A stretch of 34,175 nt of DNA, from NCBI GenBank assembly GCA_026397115.1, contig JAPLVM010000044.1, forward strand, positions 1 through 34,175. The letters are read 5' to 3'. This DNA is from Patescibacteria group bacterium (GTDB lineage: Bacteria > Patescibacteriota > Gracilibacteria > JAPLVM01). The notes below the pieces were generated by a model. The model made no database searches, had not been told where the DNA came from, and was given only the letters and a program-made list of their open reading frames with translations. Positions 46 to 8,690 of the stretch are shown piece by piece. The translations under genes and the position numbers were made by a program. Positions within the stretch are counted from its first letter, which is position 1, and each line of letters starts with the position of its first letter.

Positions 46-741
46 TTAGGAGATTATGAACAGGCTCTTATGCAACAAGTTGGTGCAACCGATGCAATTC
101 GAACAGTCTACGCAGTTCAACAAAAAATATGAATTACGACATTGTTGGCAGTTTTGACTATAAAGCAAATTATAACAATCATGGCAGTTGATACATTCGT
201 AGCACAATTCGTCATCGCTCCCATAATATAAATCGATAGAGCTTCTTACTTTTCTTATTCCTCGACTATAAAAACTATCTTCATTATGCGAACTGTTAAA
301 AAGTAAATAACAGTTTTTATTCCAACCAGCCATGTTTGTGAAGTCGCTATTCTCGCTATTTTGATTAAATAAACCCTCAGCCGGAATCTGATCTAGAAGT
401 TCAACGAATTGCTCTGTGAATGAACGGCTAAAATTAAAGCTCATTGTAATTTCAGCACCATCCCATTTGTCGCTCCACCAACATTCATGACAATAAACAG
501 GACATCTTGAACCTGGTTGATAAGCAGTAACTACCTGTTTTTTGCATAAATCGCACGCTCTCTTATACAAATTTCTTTCATTCCGAAAAGCCGCCCTTCT
601 TTGTTTACGGCAATCTGGGCACAAAGTCGGGGCGGGAACCACAAACTTATGACTATTAAAAGTCGGTGAAACCCTGTCATAAAAAGATAGGTCTTGCGCC
701 GTAATTTCAAACTGCGATTGGCATTTGGGACAGGTGGACAT
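46..741 (-). CDS. Truncated (231 aa) paralogue of the Cys-rich zinc-ribbon protein family: N-terminal module plus first Cys block only. Possible gene remnant or pseudogene.
   Basis: Aligns with the first ~230 aa of the 561-565 aa neighbours (CPKCQSQFEIT..FYD..LCPDCR..FRNERNLYKR.CDLC..VYC.ECWWSDKWD). It stops at ..CTNLLHKSLFIIS* where full-length copies continue ..NL..K.YC..NE. I see no continuation in other frames in bases 1-45. Confidence 0.6.
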   Translation of the reverse strand: MSTCPKCQSQFEITAQDLSFYDRVSPTFNSHKFVVPAPTLCPDCRKQRRAAFRNERNLYKRACDLCKKQVVTAYQPGSRCPVYCHECWWSDKWDGAEITMSFNFSRSFTEQFVELLDQIPAEGLFNQNSENSDFTNMAGWNKNCYLLFNSSHNEDSFYSRGIRKVRSSIDLYYGSDDELCYECINCHDCYNLLYSQNCQQCRNSYFLLNCVDCSNCIGCTNLLHKSLFIIS

Positions 742-877: not shown

Positions 878-2575
878 TTAATAAACCTTTTTTAGATAAC
901 ATGCTTCGCAATAGACCTTCTCATCACGATCTGGCGCATAAGAACTTTCGAAAACAAAGTCGCATCCTTCACTATCACATTTTCTCCTCCATAAACGATT
1001 CGGATTGCGCAACTTAATTCTATTCGCATGACGAATGTCAGGATGCAAATTCGGAATCGGTAAATTCATCTTCCGATAAAACTCCAGTTCTAATTTCTGA
1101 ATCACAAAAGGACGCTTTGTTTCAGCGCATTCAATCGCCCACTTCAAAATTTCATCTGGCACTTTCTTGATGTCATCTAAAATTGACAATTTACCAGCTG
1201 GAATAATTTTTTCTACCTTTGGAATTTCTATTTGAAGATCTCGCCACTGCCAGCCATTTTTCAAAACCTCACCTTTTTCAAGGGGAAAATATTCTTGCGC
1301 CGCAGTTTCATTGTAAACCGATGGCGATATATTTACTGGAAAAAACTCACCCCAAGATTTTTCTTTACGCATTTGCTCAATAATCTGAGGCACCAGTTGT
1401 TCATATTCTTCCTTGCTATATTGTTTATTTAAAATGCAATATTGGTTATGACGGAGGCCGATACTACCGAAAGAATTTCCCGCAGAAAAACAATTTTGGC
1501 AATAAAGAAAATCATGACAACCATTCCATGCTTGGGCACAAAATTGTAAATTAAAATCATCAATCCCAGCGTTTATGCTTTCATAAATAAGTTCAGCACC
1601 ACGCCCAGCTGTACTGCAATCCATACAAAATTTTGCGCCTCGCCAAACGTGTTCGCCATACCGGCATCCCTCAGCATCGTTGGCATGAAAACATCGATAG
1701 CAATCCTTTGCATTAAAGATATAATCTCCAATACAATTTTCACCATTTTCAATCTGAGCATACTTTTTAATCTGATGTTTATTAAAATCAGCAAACTTAG
1801 TTTTCAAATTACTAAGTTCTTTATAGCTACCAAAATTCAACTCAGCCATCTTCTTCTCGTACTCTTCCTTTTTCAACTGCTCATTCCACAAGCAATATTG
1901 CTTTTGACTAAGATTTGTGCAAAAGGCACAGTATGAACATCCAGCACAACTATTCAAAAACCAGGAGTTATCACAGTTACGACAATTTTGTAAAAATCCG
2001 CTGCCATAACAATTGCGACAATTCTCTAATTCATATCCAAGTTCACACTCATCAACATAATTACAATCAACTAAATCACGACATTGCTGTAGCCAATAGC
2101 CGTATAGACAATCCTCATTATTAGAACTTTCAAACACCAAATAACAATCTCTACAATCAGCAATCAAGCTACAAAAATCACAGTTTTCCGTATTTGCGCC
2201 CAGCATAGCCATTTTAGGAACCTTATTTTGCACCTCTGCAAACTGCTCGAAAAATGATTGATTCAAATCAAAATTTTTACCATGATCTAAAGCATTCCAT
2301 TTATCTGACCACCAACATTTCTGACAATAAACAGGAAACGCCGCATCTCTCGAAAATATGGATATAATATTTCTTTTGCATAAATCACAGGGTCTTTTGT
2401 ATAAATTTCGTTCATTTCGAAAAGCTAATCTCCTGTGTTGCCTGCATTCCGGACAAAGTGCAGGTTCTGAAATTTGGTATTTCTTGCCATTAAAAATTGG
2501 GGAAATTTTGTCGTAAAACAGTAAATCGTCTTGGGTGATTTCAAACTGTGATTGGCATTTGAGGCAGGTGGGCAT
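878..2575 (-). CDS. Cys-rich zinc-ribbon protein, array paralogue (565 aa), unknown function
   Basis: ATG-initiated 565-aa ORF with about 41 Cys by my count. Four N-terminal CxxC pairs, two central Cys-rich blocks and a C-terminal C..C/CxxC ribbon. No signal peptide or TM segment. Paralogous to 2687..4372, 5300..6979 and 6993..8690. Confidence 0.85.
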   Translation of the reverse strand: MPTCLKCQSQFEITQDDLLFYDKISPIFNGKKYQISEPALCPECRQHRRLAFRNERNLYKRPCDLCKRNIISIFSRDAAFPVYCQKCWWSDKWNALDHGKNFDLNQSFFEQFAEVQNKVPKMAMLGANTENCDFCSLIADCRDCYLVFESSNNEDCLYGYWLQQCRDLVDCNYVDECELGYELENCRNCYGSGFLQNCRNCDNSWFLNSCAGCSYCAFCTNLSQKQYCLWNEQLKKEEYEKKMAELNFGSYKELSNLKTKFADFNKHQIKKYAQIENGENCIGDYIFNAKDCYRCFHANDAEGCRYGEHVWRGAKFCMDCSTAGRGAELIYESINAGIDDFNLQFCAQAWNGCHDFLYCQNCFSAGNSFGSIGLRHNQYCILNKQYSKEEYEQLVPQIIEQMRKEKSWGEFFPVNISPSVYNETAAQEYFPLEKGEVLKNGWQWRDLQIEIPKVEKIIPAGKLSILDDIKKVPDEILKWAIECAETKRPFVIQKLELEFYRKMNLPIPNLHPDIRHANRIKLRNPNRLWRRKCDSEGCDFVFESSYAPDRDEKVYCEACYLKKVY

Positions 2576-2650
2576 TGGAAATTTTAAATTTTAAATTTAG
2601 TAGAGACGCATTGCATGCGTCTTTATATTTCGACGCGTCTTTGTATTGCA
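2576..2650 (+). repeat. Conserved intergenic element, copy 2: AATTTAGTAG, then palindrome AGACGCAT-TGC-ATGCGTCT (2604..2622), then GACGCGTC (2632..2639)
   Basis: Aligns with 742..823 with only a few substitutions and one small indel. It lies directly upstream of the start codon of 878..2575. Confidence 0.8.
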
Positions 2651-2686: not shown

Positions 2687-4372
2687 TTAATATACAGCCT
2701 CAAGATAGCATTTTTCACAATAGACAGTTTCAGGTCTGTCCGGAGAATAGGATGTCTGAATAGGAATATTACATTTATTACAGGTTCTGTTCCAGAGTTT
2801 TCTAGGATTACGAAGAGATAATCTGTCTTTGTGTCTTTGATCAGGATGTCTTTTAGGAAGAGGAAGATTATGCTTTCTATAAAAGTCTAATTCTTGTTTG
2901 ATTATTCTAAATGGTTTATGTGTTATTTCACATTCAATTGCCCAATCAAGAATTTGATCTGGTATTTCTGAAATAATATCTGGTAATTTATCGGCTTTAA
3001 CTATCTTTTCTACTTTAGGAAAAGGAGCTTCATAATCACTCCAGTTGAATCCTTGTTCTTGCGCTTGCTTTTTCGTAAGAGGAAAGTATTCCTGAGCTAC
3101 TGTTTCATTGTAACCAAAAGGACTGAGGCTTGGGTGAAAAAATTCTCCCCATTCTTTAGTTTTCATCATATGCTCAATTATCCTTGGCACCAATTCTTCG
3201 TATTCTTGCTTAGAATACTGTTTGTTCAAAATACAGTACTGTTTATGGCGAAGACCGATTGAGGCAAAAACATCATGGCAGCTGCGGCACCATGAAGAAT
3301 AATAAATGTTTGCACATTCATTAAAAGTGCAATCGCAACAAATAATGCGATAAGCGCCATCGCCGCAAGCCTGACATTCATACACAAGCTCTGCTCCTGT
3401 GCCGCCCCATGCGTCAACATCATAACAATCTTTGTAATTATATCCATCGTAAACAAAAGCGCAGCTTTGGCTGTTTTTTACGTTAAAACAATTCTTTAGA
3501 TCCTTTGATTTATTGAGATAATCCCCAAAGCAGTTTTCGGTTTGCATCCCATTCATATACTTCTTCGGTAAAATGTGTGAATGACCTTCCAAAGCACCTT
3601 TTGCTATGTTAATTTGCAGAGACAGGTCAAGCGTAAAATTGTTTATCTTTTGCAAATATTCGTCTTTTGAACATTTCTCATTAAAGAAATAGTATTGCTT
3701 ATTACGTAAATTCACGCACCCGAAACAGAACGAACAATTAATACAATCGCGAAGGAACCATGCGTTTGAGCATCCTTGGCAATTATATGTGAAGCTACAG
3801 TTATAACAATCGATTAAATTATCACATTCATAGCACAATTCACATTTATCGATATGACAGCAGTCTACGCAATTACGATTGTGGTAGGAATGACTTAGAT
3901 AAAGGCAATCTTGATTATGGTCAGCTTCGAAAATGAGATAACAATTTTTATTTCTAGCCGAGAAATTCACATAATCGGAATTTTCATTAAAATCATTTTG
4001 CAGGGATGGATGGGGAACCGTCTCATTGAAATCTTTAAACTGTTCAAAAAATGGCCGGCTAAAATCAAAGTCACGACCTTTTTCGATCGGATCCCATTGA
4101 TCCGATAAATAAAATTTTTGCGTGTATATAGGTATAGTTTTGTCCGGTGAATAAATTGATAAAATTTTCTCGTCTGTTGCATCGTCTTTTCTCCAATATA
4201 ATTTGCGTTCATTTCTAAATGATAGCCGTCTTTTCTGCCTGCATTCTGGACAAAGTGTAGGCTCTTGAACTTGGTATTTCTTGCCATTAAAAACTGGAGA
4301 GATCTTGTCGTAGAATAATAAATCCTCCGGCGTGACTTCAAACTGCGATTGGCATTGCGTGCAAAAATTCAT
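2687..4372 (-). CDS. Cys-rich zinc-ribbon protein, array paralogue (561 aa), unknown function
   Basis: 561-aa ORF with the same architecture. The C-terminal ~190 aa are very similar to the other copies (YCILNKQYSKQEYEELVP.II..M.K.KEWGEFF...SP.GYNETVAQEYFPL ... WAIEC..T.KPFRIIKQELDFYRKHNLPLPKRHPDQR). Confidence 0.85.
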   Translation of the reverse strand: MNFCTQCQSQFEVTPEDLLFYDKISPVFNGKKYQVQEPTLCPECRQKRRLSFRNERKLYWRKDDATDEKILSIYSPDKTIPIYTQKFYLSDQWDPIEKGRDFDFSRPFFEQFKDFNETVPHPSLQNDFNENSDYVNFSARNKNCYLIFEADHNQDCLYLSHSYHNRNCVDCCHIDKCELCYECDNLIDCYNCSFTYNCQGCSNAWFLRDCINCSFCFGCVNLRNKQYYFFNEKCSKDEYLQKINNFTLDLSLQINIAKGALEGHSHILPKKYMNGMQTENCFGDYLNKSKDLKNCFNVKNSQSCAFVYDGYNYKDCYDVDAWGGTGAELVYECQACGDGAYRIICCDCTFNECANIYYSSWCRSCHDVFASIGLRHKQYCILNKQYSKQEYEELVPRIIEHMMKTKEWGEFFHPSLSPFGYNETVAQEYFPLTKKQAQEQGFNWSDYEAPFPKVEKIVKADKLPDIISEIPDQILDWAIECEITHKPFRIIKQELDFYRKHNLPLPKRHPDQRHKDRLSLRNPRKLWNRTCNKCNIPIQTSYSPDRPETVYCEKCYLEAVY

Positions 4373-4479: not shown

Positions 4480-5235
4480 TTAATTTCTTATCAGATAAAA
4501 CACATAACTATAATATTCATAATATTTCTTAAATATGTCGATTTCTCTTTGCACCGAGGAAATGCATTTCAGAGCCTCATCATTGCCCAAATATTTTTGC
4601 TCCAATATTTTTAATCGCTTTTCAATTGGAAAATAGTATTCATCAGCCCATGTATTTGGAGGAAGGATTATTTTATCTATCAGATTATATCCTTCTTGTT
4701 CGATTTCTTTTACATAATCTCGTATATGTAAAACTTCATTTCCCGTCTCGTATCTCCAATAATCACGTAGTTTCTTCGGCGGATTCTCCTTTATCCAGGC
4801 AATATGCGAAAATGCAATGCATGAATCATTTTTTAGATATTTTCTCCAAGATCTTAAACCGTTCTCTATACCAATTATAAAAATGGAACCCTCGGCCCAA
4901 ATAACATCAAAGGCCAAGGCACTATATGGCAAGTCAAACATAGAAACATTTTCAACCTTTATCTTCTTTCCCAAATGATTTTTATCGATCTTCACCGATA
5001 ATTCATCCAGAAAAGGCTGATGCGTATCAATTGATGTAATCTTCACGTTATCGAACTCCGCTAATTTCATTGATTGTCTCCCAGGACCACAACCAATATC
5101 TAAAATATTATAAAAATCTTTTTTGGTGGCTGTTTTGATAATATTAAAAACCTTTTCAGTATAAAAATCGCTTCCCGGTCCTTGTCTTGGTAGGCTTTGG
5201 TGAATTTCCCAAAAAATTTTTCCCTTATCTGCCAT
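4480..5235 (-). CDS. Class I SAM-dependent methyltransferase (251 aa)
   Basis: Motif I ILDIGCGPGRQS, followed by an acidic residue at the end of beta-2 (ITSIDT) and motif post-I/II spacing typical of Methyltransf_11/25-like enzymes. Substrate cannot be told from the sequence. Confidence 0.8.
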   Translation of the reverse strand: MADKGKIFWEIHQSLPRQGPGSDFYTEKVFNIIKTATKKDFYNILDIGCGPGRQSMKLAEFDNVKITSIDTHQPFLDELSVKIDKNHLGKKIKVENVSMFDLPYSALAFDVIWAEGSIFIIGIENGLRSWRKYLKNDSCIAFSHIAWIKENPPKKLRDYWRYETGNEVLHIRDYVKEIEQEGYNLIDKIILPPNTWADEYYFPIEKRLKILEQKYLGNDEALKCISSVQREIDIFKKYYEYYSYVFYLIRN

Positions 5236-5299: not shown

Positions 5300-6979
5300 C
5301 TAATAAATCTCCTCTTGATAACACTTCTCGCAATAAATTTTACGCTGGCCTCTTTTATATACAGTTTGAACTGGCTGTCCGCACTTTGAACACGCAATCT
5401 CCTGCAAATCTTTAAACTCTAGTATCTTAGACTTTTCCTTAATCCTTTCAAATGGCGATACACGAGGAATTGGCAAATTATTCTGCCTATAATAATCTAA
5501 TTCTTGCTTAATAATACGATATTTTTTGCCACTCACAGTACACTTTAAAACAGCTTGTAAAATGTCGTCTTGCACATCACGAATATGATCAGGAATCTGA
5601 TAGATCGAGGCGAACGATTCAACTTCATCATCTTTCCAGTCTAGACCTCTAGCTAATACTTCCTCCTTAGCTAAAGGAAAAAAATCTTGCGCTTCACTTT
5701 GATTGTAATAAAAAGGAACAAAAGATGCTGGAAAAAATTGACCCCATTCACAGGCTTGTCCCGCGTAATCTTGATGAAGCGGGGTCTTTTTCATATGGCT
5801 AATAATACGTTGTCGCAGATCAGAATATTCAACCGGATTATATTGCTTATTAAAAATACAGTATTCTTTCTTTTTAAGACCACAACACCCAAAACAGTTG
5901 CTACAACCTAAGCAAGCAAACATGCAATATTCCAGATTATTCGGATTCGGAAAACACTCTGCTGAAAATTTGGTGTTATAACCATTAGTTCCAACGCTAC
6001 TGCAATTGTATATAAGCTCCGAGACATTCCCAAAAGCAAAATAAAATAAACAACTTTTCGCTTCGTTAATATTAATGCAATATTCCATATCCTCGGCGCT
6101 ATTTACCATAAAACAATTTTGAGCATTTTTAGTATTATTCAAAAAATTACCACTGGAGTTTTCATTATTTTTACCTTGTAAATGTTTCACTGCTAGGCTC
6201 TCTTTGACCGACGCCCACTTAGCTTGCTCAGAAACCAAAACCTTGTAGCTACCGATATCTATCTCGCTCATCCTTTTCTTATAATCATCCTTGCTCAACT
6301 GTTGATTGTAAAAACAATACTCCTTTTTATACAAATTCGCGCATCCAAAACAATCATTGCAGCCTTGGCAGTTGTAAAGAAAATAAGAATCCGCACAATC
6401 ATGACAATATTCAGAAAACTTCAAATTATGACAACCTTTGATACTGGCACACTCATAACACAATTCTGAATCATAAGCTGAAATGCAATCAATTAAATTT
6501 TTGACTCTATAAATAATTTTGCAAAACATACAATCTTCGCCATCCACGCCACCAAAAACAAGATAGCAATTACGCTGTTGCGACACACCATTACAATAAT
6601 CACTATTTTCTAAAGTATGCTTCTGCACGCTTAGATTTGGCCAAGGCATTTCCCTGAGCATATCTGCAAACTGTTCAAAAAATGGCCTATTAAAATCAAA
6701 ATCGCGACCATATTCTAAACCATCCCAAACATCAGAATTCCAAATATCAACCTCATAAACTTTCAAATTCTTCTCTGGAGGTATGTAGCTTAAAATCGGT
6801 TTTTTCGAATAATCACAAATTGAATTATAAAGATACTGCCTATTGCGAAACAAACATAAAATTCTCATCCGTTCATTCGGATGAATAGTGGGCATAGGCA
6901 AATCATTATCAGCACAGTATTTTTTCTCCGCCTCGGAAACAACGAAAGTCTTACCAGTCTGTCTACATATCTGTTGCAT
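5300..6979 (-). CDS. Cys-rich zinc-ribbon protein, divergent array paralogue (559 aa from the ATG at 6979)
   Basis: The ORF track runs 5300..7075, but that start overlaps the upstream gene by 83 nt. The ATG at 6979 (MQQICRQTGK..) lies 13 nt after the upstream stop (6993). Central and C-terminal regions are homologous to the other copies. The N-terminus lacks the first CxxC. Confidence 0.8.
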   Translation of the reverse strand: MQQICRQTGKTFVVSEAEKKYCADNDLPMPTIHPNERMRILCLFRNRQYLYNSICDYSKKPILSYIPPEKNLKVYEVDIWNSDVWDGLEYGRDFDFNRPFFEQFADMLREMPWPNLSVQKHTLENSDYCNGVSQQRNCYLVFGGVDGEDCMFCKIIYRVKNLIDCISAYDSELCYECASIKGCHNLKFSEYCHDCADSYFLYNCQGCNDCFGCANLYKKEYCFYNQQLSKDDYKKRMSEIDIGSYKVLVSEQAKWASVKESLAVKHLQGKNNENSSGNFLNNTKNAQNCFMVNSAEDMEYCININEAKSCLFYFAFGNVSELIYNCSSVGTNGYNTKFSAECFPNPNNLEYCMFACLGCSNCFGCCGLKKKEYCIFNKQYNPVEYSDLRQRIISHMKKTPLHQDYAGQACEWGQFFPASFVPFYYNQSEAQDFFPLAKEEVLARGLDWKDDEVESFASIYQIPDHIRDVQDDILQAVLKCTVSGKKYRIIKQELDYYRQNNLPIPRVSPFERIKEKSKILEFKDLQEIACSKCGQPVQTVYKRGQRKIYCEKCYQEEIY

Positions 6980-6992
6980 AGCTGATTTATAA

Positions 6993-8690
6993 TTAAAAAA
7001 CTGTCTTCTGATAACACTCCTCGCAATAAATCTTTTCTGGACGGTCAGGTGCAAACGGCGTTTCAAACTCAACACTACAGCCGAGGTTAGCGCAGGAACG
7101 GTGCCACAAACGCAAAGGATTAAGCTGTTTTAATCGCATTTCATATCGCAAATCAGGATGCAATCGAGGAAGGGGCAATCCAGCGCGACGGTAAAATGCC
7201 AGCTCGGCTTTTTGAATGATAAATGGCCTCTTGGTTTCCGCGCACTCAATCGCCCAATTCAAAATTTCATCAGGCACCTCTGAAATTGAAATTGGTAATT
7301 TGGAAGCTGGAATAATTTTTGCTACTTTTGGAATTTCAATTTTCTCATCAAGCCATTCAAATCCATGTTGAACCGCTTTTTCTTTTGTTATGGGAAAATG
7401 ATCATAGGCAATACTTTCATTATAAGCAAATGGCGAAATGCTAGAAGGAAAAAATTTTGCCCATTCACCTGTCTTTTCCATGTGTGAAATAATCTTTGCA
7501 ATCAGTTCACTGTATTCCTGTTTAGAATATTTTTTATTAAAAATGCAGTATTCTTGATGATTGTTCAGGCCATGGCATCCAAAGCAATTTTTAACATTCA
7601 TACAACTTTGACAATAAATCAGATTCTCGCACGCCCAAGATCGATGAGTAAAAAGACAAGAATAAGTGTCATTACCTATTTCACCGCAGTTATAAGCAAG
7701 ATTGATATTTGATCCCCACACAGATACATCCTGGCAGTCTTTGATACCATATTTGAGCCAAGCACAATATTTGCAATCTTCAGCGTCTTTCACAATAAAA
7801 GACTGGCTGCAATTCTTGCAATTTTCAAGCATATTACCCACCGACGCCTCACAGCTCAAAATATTCGCATATTTATGCGGAACCGAAAGATATATCTCAT
7901 AAGCTCTTTTTTTTGTATCTTCTATCGATGACGGCGTAAAGAAAAAATCTCTTAATCTATGTTCATATTCAGCGCGAGTTAATTTTTCATTAAACCAATA
8001 ATACTCTTTATTTCGAAGCTCACTACAACCAAAACAATTTGAACAACCATAACAGTAATGACAAAAATGACAGTTATTACAATCCTTCAAACTACGAGAG
8101 AAAAATGAATAATAGCAATTTATACCATCAACACATTCATAGCATAATTCCGCATGGTCTATATCTCGACAGTCAAAGCAATCACGCGAATACCACAATC
8201 CAGTGCAATACATGCAACACTCGCTTCCAGCAGCGTTAAAACACAGGTAACAGTTTTTTAGGCTATTACACCCATTGCAATATTCAGAATTTTCCATGCC
8301 CATAGTATCAACAAACGCGTGCGGATGAGGAACTTCGAGAGCCATTTCTCGAAATTGCTCAAAAAATTGCCTATTAAAATCAAAGTCACGACCCTGCCTC
8401 AATGGATCGTAATATTTGTCATCATGCCAAGCACTTATATGGTACACAGGAAATTTCACATCAGGCCTATGAGCTGAAATTATTGTTCTGCCTGTCGCAT
8501 CACACTTTCGTTTATAAATTTTACGAATATTACGAAAAGAAAGTCTGTGTATCAACCGACATTCTGGGCACATTTCCGGCTCAGGAATCGCAAATTTCTG
8601 ACCATTAAAAATTGGCGCAACTTTATCATGAAAAACACGATCTTCAGGGGCAACTTCAAACTGCGATTTACACTTTAAACAAGTTTTCAT
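6993..8690 (-). CDS. Cys-rich zinc-ribbon protein, array paralogue (565 aa), unknown function
   Basis: 565-aa ORF with N-terminus MKTCLKCKSQFEV.PED..F.DK..PIFNG.K...PEP..CPECR. The C-terminus WAIECAETKRPFIIQKAELAFYRRAGLPLPRLHPDLR is near-identical in pattern to 878..2575. Confidence 0.85.
   Translation of the reverse strand: MKTCLKCKSQFEVAPEDRVFHDKVAPIFNGQKFAIPEPEMCPECRLIHRLSFRNIRKIYKRKCDATGRTIISAHRPDVKFPVYHISAWHDDKYYDPLRQGRDFDFNRQFFEQFREMALEVPHPHAFVDTMGMENSEYCNGCNSLKNCYLCFNAAGSECCMYCTGLWYSRDCFDCRDIDHAELCYECVDGINCYYSFFSRSLKDCNNCHFCHYCYGCSNCFGCSELRNKEYYWFNEKLTRAEYEHRLRDFFFTPSSIEDTKKRAYEIYLSVPHKYANILSCEASVGNMLENCKNCSQSFIVKDAEDCKYCAWLKYGIKDCQDVSVWGSNINLAYNCGEIGNDTYSCLFTHRSWACENLIYCQSCMNVKNCFGCHGLNNHQEYCIFNKKYSKQEYSELIAKIISHMEKTGEWAKFFPSSISPFAYNESIAYDHFPITKEKAVQHGFEWLDEKIEIPKVAKIIPASKLPISISEVPDEILNWAIECAETKRPFIIQKAELAFYRRAGLPLPRLHPDLRYEMRLKQLNPLRLWHRSCANLGCSVEFETPFAPDRPEKIYCEECYQKTVF

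Follow-up and report, generated by a model that had tools for sequence, protein, structure and literature searches.

Known members of the zinc-finger families zf_Tbcl and zf_Tbcl_2 are mostly small stand-alone proteins. Among short-repeat β-solenoids, the antifreeze protein of Tenebrio molitor (TmAFP; PDB 1EZG/1L1I) is a secreted right-handed β-helix of 12 residues per coil, with Cys residues that are i/i+6 disulfide partners and an ice-binding T-x-T face. The pentapeptide-repeat proteins (Qnr/MfpA) and the hexapeptide left-handed β-helices are cytoplasmic bacterial β-solenoids with very short repeats (periods of 5/20 and 6/18 residues, respectively), and the former are acidic and work by mimicry or binding rather than catalysis. 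Large Cys-rich proteins have also been described in Peribacteria (Anantharaman et al. 2016, PMC4736985), where they average 1,655 aa, mostly carry signal peptides and are predicted to be extracellular. Here we describe a family of Cys-rich proteins encoded in a 34,175-bp stretch of DNA (the window), which is an entire contig of an assembly from Patescibacteria, or the candidate phyla radiation (CPR). Six minus-strand genes occupy the left 8.7 kb of the window in the order E, A, B, methyltransferase, C and D, and the product of the open reading frame (ORF) at 878..2575 on the minus strand (protein A; 565 aa, 41 Cys) is the reference for all residue numbers below. From its N-terminus to its C-terminus, protein A comprises a pair of zinc fingers, a 12-residue solenoid, a 13-residue solenoid, an acidic connector and a second pair of fingers, and sequence comparison traces the mirrored order of these domains to two independent ancient duplications. 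The explanation that best accounts for the data as a whole, to which we assign a probability of roughly 0.55, is that these finger-capped double β-solenoids are a diversified binding or recognition scaffold.

An earlier note on this DNA had read the proteins as module / block A / block B / module and had attributed this layout to internal duplication. In protein A, residues 1-100 (N) aligned to residues 471-565 (C) with a Smith-Waterman score of 92, compared with 28±5.4 in 500 composition-preserving shuffles (z=11.9; 0/500 reached 92), and the alignment recovered the skeleton motif that the note had listed for both ends (F-x-I, L-x-FY, P-x-P, (C/H)P-(E/D)-x-R, RN-x-x-L-(Y/W)-x-R-x-C and VYC-x2-C). 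Residues 101-243 (A) and 244-395 (B) scored 131, compared with 38.5±7.4 in shuffles (z=12.4-13), and the N-vs-A and C-vs-B controls were at background level. Profile–profile comparisons (hhalign on sub-alignments of 46 family members) gave a probability of 99.5% (E=2.4e-23) for N vs C and 99.9% (E=7.2e-33) for A vs B, while seven control pairs (N/A, N/B, C/A, C/B and connector/any) gave ≤1.2%; by the same method, the connector showed no similarity to any other part of the protein. The layout recurs in paralog B (2687..4372, minus strand; 561 aa, 48% identity to A; A/B z=13.4, N/C z=14.5) and paralog D (6993..8690, minus strand; 565 aa; 16.1 and 4.5), as the note had proposed, and also in paralog C (5300..6979, minus strand; 559 aa from the ATG at 6979; 16.8 and 9.0). 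Paralogs A to D are 559-565 aa in length and contain 6.3-7.6% Cys.

The note had named a background effect of Cys-rich composition as the outcome that would overturn this layout, and a self-BLASTP run indeed gave no off-diagonal match. However, z remained at 10-17 even when all Cys residues were held fixed in the shuffles (10.2 for N vs C and 10.0 for A vs B in protein A), the hhalign E-values were 1e-23 to 1e-33 and the negative controls were clean, so that the two resemblances have next to no chance of being by-products of composition and we consider this explanation refuted. Because the profiles built at the level of the family still match, the two duplications are placed by this comparison before the radiation of the family. 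The term 'pseudo-symmetric' used in the note is appropriate for the order of the domains (M-A-B-M) but not for the structure, as a mirrored order implies no structural two-fold axis.

Each end module corresponds, on sequence evidence, to a tandem pair of treble-clef zinc fingers. The Pfam and NCBIfam matches of the end modules were all sub-threshold and all to treble-clef zinc-finger models, with PF13451 (zf_Tbcl) falling on the first ~50 aa and PF23477 (zf_Tbcl_2)/TIGR04272 on the next ~35 aa and the last ~35 aa, and these models point away from the 'zinc-ribbon' label given in the earlier note. PF13451 scored 22.6 bits in copy E (46..741; gathering cut-off 24) and was found at E<0.01 in 6 of the 46 members, with no match in protein A. 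PF23477 scored 18-21.5 bits in the copies of the window (cut-off 27; residues 56-89 of copy E) and was found at E<0.01 in 33 of the 46 members (best E=1.1e-6), and TIGR04272 scored 14.5-21.8 bits in the sister copies (cut-off 36). PDB sequence searches yielded marginal LIM-domain matches to the last finger only (E=0.0024 with a profile).

N finger 1 (2411..2575, minus strand; residues 1-55) is of the zf_Tbcl type and contains C4, C7, C41 and C44 in a CxxC-x33-CxxC arrangement, which agrees with the two CxxC knuckles, ~30 residues apart and forming one Cys4 site, that define zf_Tbcl. Its Cys residues are followed by an Arg-rich helix, CRQHRRLAFRNER (helix 42-50), and the finger is modelled by AlphaFold2 (AF2) at a predicted local distance difference test score (pLDDT) of ~92. 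N finger 2 (2291..2410, minus strand; residues 56-95) is intact in protein A and contains C63, C66, C84 and C87 (CxxC-x17-CxxC). In the C-terminal module, the homologue of finger 1 (1001..1165, minus strand; residues 471-525) has lost its ligands in protein A (C483, T486, H511 and I514) but keeps F-x-I, EL-x-FYR, LP-x-P, HPD-x-RH and RN-x-x-LW-x-R and can be aligned with N-module residues 3-60. C finger 2 (881..1000, minus strand; residues 526-565) is of the zf_Tbcl_2/TIGR04272 type with C533, C538, C556 and C559 (C-x4-C-x17-C-x2-C), and the protein ends six residues past the last of these. The CxxC-x17-CxxC spacing occurs at residues 63-87 of protein A and likewise in copy B (C-x2-C-x17-C-x2-C); small proteins of Methanosarcina with this spacing have been found to bind zinc by inductively coupled plasma mass spectrometry (PMC12704099), the only paper retrieved by literature searches under the Pfam/TIGR finger names. 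By analogy, the fingers of the present proteins would be expected to bind zinc.

Ligand counts and covariation (phi) were computed on 266 aligned homologues. All four Cys residues are intact in 236/266 homologues in N finger 1 (phi of 0.84 between positions 7 and 44) and in 258/266 in C finger 2. The inner fingers are more often without ligands: N finger 2 is CCCC in 74/266, with the whole tetrad gone in 72% of the family (phi 0.96-0.98 among C66, C84 and C87), and C finger 1 is CCCC in only 50/266 (phi 0.71-0.95 among 486, 511 and 514). Loss at the inner sites (63, 66, 84 and 87; 483, 486, 511 and 514) is all-or-none by tetrad, and phi among the variable ligands ranges from 0.71 to 0.98. In the commonest state (140/266, 53%), the outermost finger alone is intact at each end, and protein A retains three fingers.

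Departures from this pattern were found in a few copies. N finger 1 is without ligands in paralog C, where HPNER stands in place of CPxCR. In that copy (5300-6979) and in a copy on contig C74 (14851-16527) of the host genome (G000), this finger lacks Cys ligands (..LPMPTIHPNERMR..) and resembles the C-terminal module. Replacement of the N module by a C-type module in 5300..6979 was rejected, as the N-module hidden Markov model (N-HMM) scored 62.9 bits vs 46.5 bits for the C-HMM and all 37 N-termini in the genome favour the N-HMM; these scores identify the ligand-less state as parallel decay. Separately, three copies in the same genome (C70:10757-12388, C70:14234-15799 and C61:414-2054) form a divergent subfamily scoring ~380 bits vs 640-880 for the rest, with poorly scoring end modules (N-HMM 45-57 bits, C-HMM 43-58 bits).

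The central blocks are two related runs of short coils. Block A (1841..2290, minus strand; residues 96-245) consists of a cap helix (FFEQF..VP), ~8 coils of 12 residues (residues 131-229; 1889-2185), a cap (CxFCTNLxxKQYCLWNEQ..KEEY; family consensus CFGCxNLxxKxYCIxNxQxSKEEY) and a helix. Block B (1361..1840, minus strand; residues 246-405) consists of a helix, ~8 coils of 13 residues (residues 276-381; 1433-1750) with fewer Cys residues than in A, a conserved cap (FGCVGL..YCILNKQYSKEEYE) and a helix at 388-404, and it matches block A row for row with one residue more per coil. Stacked coil upon coil, the ~8 rows of 12 residues in block A share the consensus [C]-x-[Y/F]-[C/L]-x-[D/N]-[C]-x-x-[C]-x-[D/N]. 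The '(D/N)C-x2-C-x(5-9)' units recognized in the earlier note are real and resolve into this strict register, with Cys columns at every third residue across ~100 residues and no phase break. The normalized period-3 power of Cys frequency in block A is 28, and the column-entropy power is 9.1 at period 12 in block A and 5.7 at period 13 in block B.

A solenoid or β-helix had been guessed for these Cys runs in the note, and the AF2 model of block A alone, with 37 paralogs of the genome as the alignment, agrees with this guess: pLDDT is 84.8 overall and 90-97 in the coils, and DSSP assigns 'EEEEEEE--E--' every 12 residues, flanked by N- and C-terminal helices. The full-length model has a pLDDT of 82 and a predicted template modelling score of 0.83. 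Its blocks show little regular secondary structure, with bridges at residues 157, 162-163, 169, 174-175 and 187 and, in block B, at 305, 318, 331 and 344 (DSSP). In Foldseek searches against PDB, block A alone had no significant neighbour and only generic β-helix matches (best E=3.8e-3); 49 of the 50 matches listed were β-helix proteins such as AlgE4, phage tailspikes, pectin lyases and RP2/CAP. The top match was the SV2B-BoNT/A1 complex, presumably through its β-helix luminal domain. The full model yielded nothing in PDB (best E=1.3) and only weak matches to a 'zinc-ribbon domain protein' in BFVD, and the core is covered by no Pfam, NCBIfam, PADLOC or PDB entry. Assignment of the core to the narrow β-solenoid fold class is thus well supported by the models, whereas a specific structural relative is not supported.

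Zinc or disulfide ladders had also been suggested in the note for the Cys residues of the core, and here the finger tetrads provide an internal positive control for ligand behaviour. Among the 266 homologues, core Cys residues are substituted singly, mostly by Ser and then by Leu or Val; at residues 186/189/198/201, for instance, the patterns CCSC, SCCC, CSCC and CCCS are all common. Covariation does not exceed a phi of 0.42, and the best values are mostly between stacked positions 12 residues apart. The block A coils contain 6 to 21 Cys residues, and the Cys count of the coils is even in only 49% of the homologues. Because the exchanges are single, covariation is weak and there is no bias towards even numbers, these residues do not behave as fixed zinc tetrads or obligatory disulfides; by this sequence criterion they look like small inward-pointing packing residues arranged in four in-register ladders. 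A core that acts as a metal-binding or redox device, be it a zinc or iron-sulfur ladder, a metallothionein-like buffer or a disulfide-braced helix as in insect antifreeze proteins, with metal or redox chemistry as the function, could account for the CxxC units repeated every 12 residues, for the Cys content of the block A coils (15%), for the last coil of block A (C-x2-C-x2-C-x2-C; C210, C213, C216 and C219), in which each site is 83-94% conserved, and for a DsbA-like gene after the array in the homologous locus L001. This explanation is nevertheless improbable in our judgement, given the single exchanges to Ser, the contrast with the phi values of the inner-finger ligands, the parity of the Cys counts and the cytoplasmic location of the proteins; moreover, block B has about one-third fewer Cys residues, yet its cap is better conserved than that of block A.

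Conservation and charge also follow the domain borders. Residues 369-405, the cap and helix of block B, have the lowest mean column entropy of any region (1.3), followed in rank by the fingers and the acidic connector (1166..1360, minus strand; residues 406-470), and the inter-block segment and the block B coils are the least conserved. The connector (EWGEFFP...SP..YNET.AQEYFP...W.D...PKVEKIIPA) is modelled at pLDDT 85-93 and contains 13 near-invariant residues (E407, G409, F411, F412, S417, F419, Y421, N422, E423, A426, P431, W444 and P464). In the coils, positions 1, 3 and 10 are most conserved and positions 5, 6, 8 and 9 most variable. Net charge is mirrored in the same way as the domains, with +3.2/+4.2 in the fingers, -4.6/-5.1 in the coils and -3.9 in the connector. 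No copy contains a membrane-like segment (the maximum Kyte-Doolittle 19-residue window has a median of 0.97) and no signal peptide was found in the paralogs, which are soluble proteins of ~565 aa.

The consistency of the basic-acidic-acidic-basic pattern over the 266 homologues, together with the Arg-rich helices of the fingers and the arrays without an adjacent ATPase gene in the present genome, could be taken to indicate stand-alone nucleic-acid-directed factors. Their acidic solenoids would mimic DNA, as MfpA/Qnr do, with the basic fingers attached to nucleic acid or to a DNA-binding target, and the proteins would regulate or inhibit foreign or host DNA enzymes without an ATPase partner. 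We consider this unlikely, as the proteins resemble neither the pentapeptide family nor any other known DNA mimic and each solenoid has a net charge of only about -5.

The family is large, old and almost confined to the CPR. A word-indexed search returned >6,800 proteins at E≤1e-3, all of ~560 aa, none with a functional name and all derived from Gracilibacteria, Peregrinibacteria/Peribacteria and other Patescibacteria, and an exhaustive HMMER search gave 3,761 clusters when sequences were grouped at 50% identity. One diagnostic peptide was found in at least 595 loci among species representatives, nearly all of them labelled Peribacteria, Peregrinibacteria, Gracilibacteria or other CPR. Of 301 genomes sampled evenly across the phylum, 16 contain the family, and the present genome is the extreme case seen for copy number. 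One contig with the label 'Candidatus Micrarchaeota archaeon UBA10214' (L011, DUGF01000091.1) also carries a full-length member, for which a binning error is more likely than a true archaeal member. A tblastn search of 50,697 phage genomes detected no homologue, IMG/VR contained one marginal locus only and PADLOC-DB had no match for the three paralogs tested. The family is not mentioned in the Gracilibacteria metaproteome paper or in the paper on CPR type IV secretion systems.

The host genome (a 945,720-bp assembly, 90% complete) contains 50 pieces of the family, 37 of which are full-length and open, on 21 contigs (C9, C12, C21, C23, C24, C27, C30, C34, C42, C45, C50, C57, C61, C69, C70, C74, C76, C78, C85, C86 and C95). 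Together, they take up 72,735 bp, or 7.7% of the genome. Because many copies sit at contig ends, the arrays have probably broken the assembly and the true copy number may exceed 50 pieces. The standard code applies in this genome, where TGA is the stop codon of 2 of the 37 copies; in the Gracilibacteria locus L002 (GCA_028688895.1), homologues were observed to be read with TGA as Gly (code 25). Pairwise identity among the copies of the genome is 23-62% (median 41%), array neighbours are barely closer to one another (41%) than other pairs are (39%), and protein A shares 54-56% identity with homologues from other organisms vs ≤48.5% with any of its own paralogs. These comparisons show an ancient large-scale paralogy, in which nearly all full-length copies have stayed intact.

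Two kinds of genes recur beside the arrays. All three TrmB-like regulator genes of the genome (~260 aa) lie within 2 kb of an array: those at C95:5323-5526 and C30:13620-13814 are divergent from and adjacent to arrays, and that at C86:6798-7001 is 1.9 kb away. TrmB-like genes also flank arrays in many relatives, including L001 (1-353) and L002 (9091-9861). An ORF for a soluble VirD4/TraD-like ATPase of ~750 aa lies ≤2 kb from an array in 9 of 14 sampled genomes (G244:C8, G082:C4, G287:C31, G031:C15, G073:C14, G199:C1, G119:C151, G027:C15 and G165:C6) and in L001 (2167-4542), compared with about one case expected by chance, an estimate based on 1-3 VirD4-like genes per ~1-Mb genome and arrays making up a few percent of each genome. 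The ATPase has an N-terminal DUF8128, scores as HerA/mad8-like (mad8 at 5e-13 for that of L001) and strongly matches phrog_5156 (E=4.8e-68).

This association invites the idea that the proteins are cargo, i.e. effectors or escorts of DNA or RNA that an ATPase resembling a type IV coupling protein (T4CP) hands to a secretion or transfer channel leading into the host bacterium, with the set of paralogs as the effector arsenal of an episymbiont. The recurrent ATPase gene, the very large and old repertoire in a reduced genome and the frequency in Patescibacteria of orphan T4CP genes distant from virB4 (PMC12102498) fit with this idea. However, the adjacent ATPases have no obvious N-terminal membrane anchor, the C-terminus of the proteins is a tightly conserved structured zinc finger rather than a disordered charged secretion signal, no assembled array of the present genome adjoins an ATPase gene and the likeness of the ATPase to HerA/mad8 and phrog_5156 means that a secretion role is not established. 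We therefore regard export as cargo as doubtful, albeit conceivable.

Under the recognition-scaffold explanation, which we prefer, the conserved ends and connector would provide an activity common to all copies, either docking to a partner or the binding of nucleic acid by the Arg-rich helices of the fingers. Each old paralog would have its own target by virtue of the variable solenoid face (coil positions 5, 6, 8 and 9), so that the paralogs together would constitute a repertoire of recognition scaffolds. The arrays would probably be controlled by the adjacent TrmB-like regulators, and in many relatives the hexameric VirD4/HerA-like ATPase encoded nearby would probably have the proteins as its clients or adaptors. 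Several points weigh against this explanation. The variability at positions 5, 6, 8 and 9 could stem from solvent exposure instead of specificity, the coil regions of the full-length model reach a pLDDT of only 56-76, and the inward orientation of the ladders is deduced from the periodicity of their residues and the way in which these are exchanged. The last coil of block A (C210-C219) could, on its conservation, be a genuine metal site. In addition, the TrmB link is missing in one family of relatives (f28), and the two VirD4-like genes of the present genome (contigs C10 and C11) adjoin no assembled array. A more specific scenario, which we put forward tentatively and with little confidence, is that of a CPR-specific repertoire of dozens of anciently diverged proteins, switched on by dedicated TrmB-like sensors and passed on by orphan VirD4-like ATPases either to be delivered into the host bacterium or to act on it.

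The remaining features of the window concern copy E, the upstream regions and the embedded gene. Copy E (46..741, minus strand; 231 aa) lies 45 bp from the contig end and contains the N module and most of block A. It terminates within the block A cap, its final eight residues depart from the family and no continuation of the protein was found in other frames; copy E is a truncated pseudogene or else an artefact of the assembly edge. Upstream of E and A (742-823 and 2576-2650, minus strand), a near-identical block was observed, TGCAATACAAAGACGCGTC...GAGACGCATGCAATGCGTCTC. Within this block are GACGCGTC and a hairpin whose 9-bp arms pair perfectly; it may act as an operator site and has no counterpart upstream of B and D. 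The gene embedded between B and C (4480..5235, minus strand) encodes a class I S-adenosylmethionine methyltransferase that matches PADLOC mad2 of the MADS defence system (E=4.7e-13) over the methyltransferase domain; this match and that of the L001 ATPase are at the level of shared domains. A functional link of the methyltransferase to the array was considered and dropped, as no other array-adjacent methyltransferase was found in the neighbour clusters of the genome or in L001/L002, and its position appears incidental. On a reading of their sequences, the large ORFs flanking arrays in the present genome look like ordinary housekeeping genes (e.g. RelA/SpoT, ThrRS, IF-2, RpoC, UvrD and SecD).

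These results show that a minimal patescibacterial genome devotes 7.7% of its DNA to ~40 old, intact copies of one uncharacterised protein. A family of thousands now has a defined anatomy of two finger pairs, two β-helices with 12- and 13-residue coils and a conserved connector, in which the probable metal-ligand Cys residues can be told apart from packing Cys residues, and this anatomy, together with the anciently diverged copies, makes experiments on the family feasible. A concrete handle on the interaction of the symbionts with hosts or mobile DNA comes from the recurrent TrmB-like and VirD4/HerA-like neighbours. If the delivery scenario were true, the repertoire would be to an episymbiont what effector arsenals are to intracellular pathogens, and the many 'orphan' coupling proteins of Patescibacteria would gain a substrate. 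Foldseek showed no close counterpart in PDB of the 12-residue Cys/Ser-ladder helix, which may be a new type of short-repeat solenoid of interest for protein design.

Among described systems, zf_Tbcl and zf_Tbcl_2/TIGR04272 are like both end modules in having treble-clef CxxC...CxxC patterns, a second knuckle that is followed by a basic helix, and the motif F-x-[IF]-[TS]-x-x-[DE]-x-x-FY. The end modules differ in scoring 18-22.6 bits, under the zf_Tbcl and zf_Tbcl_2 cut-offs of 24 or 27, and in that the fingers are fused as a pair, with a pair at both chain ends and one finger per pair usually ligand-less. TmAFP resembles block A in its 12 residues per coil, its very regular coils and the small residues, mainly Cys and Ser, at every third position of a very narrow core, and 1l1i is among the Foldseek matches, albeit a weak one (E=0.22, TMt 0.31). 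In contrast to TmAFP, the Cys residues here are spaced i/i+3 with no pairing signal, the proteins are cytoplasmic and without a signal peptide, and the T-x-T face is missing from the coil consensus. The pentapeptide- and hexapeptide-repeat solenoids, with which the present proteins share a cytoplasmic bacterial setting and very short repeats, differ in period, as in neither block does the power of Cys frequency exceed 0.5, about the background level, at a period of 5, 6 or 18 residues, and the Pfam pentapeptide and hexapeptide models have no match in the family. The Peribacteria proteins (PMC4736985) belong to the same bacterial group and are likewise ~7% Cys and encoded in gene clusters, but identity with that set was rejected because its members are large and secreted, whereas those described here are of ~560 aa and have no signal peptide. 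The sole library profile that matches the solenoid blocks is phrog_15341, built from phage proteins whose function is unnamed; with 276 positions it is about as long as the two-block core alone. It matches weakly at 37 places in the genome (best E=1.5e-9), with some matches spanning both blocks and all confined to them. We accordingly rate these proteins as known kinds of parts, namely a short-repeat β-solenoid and treble-clef fingers, assembled in an undescribed architecture and family.

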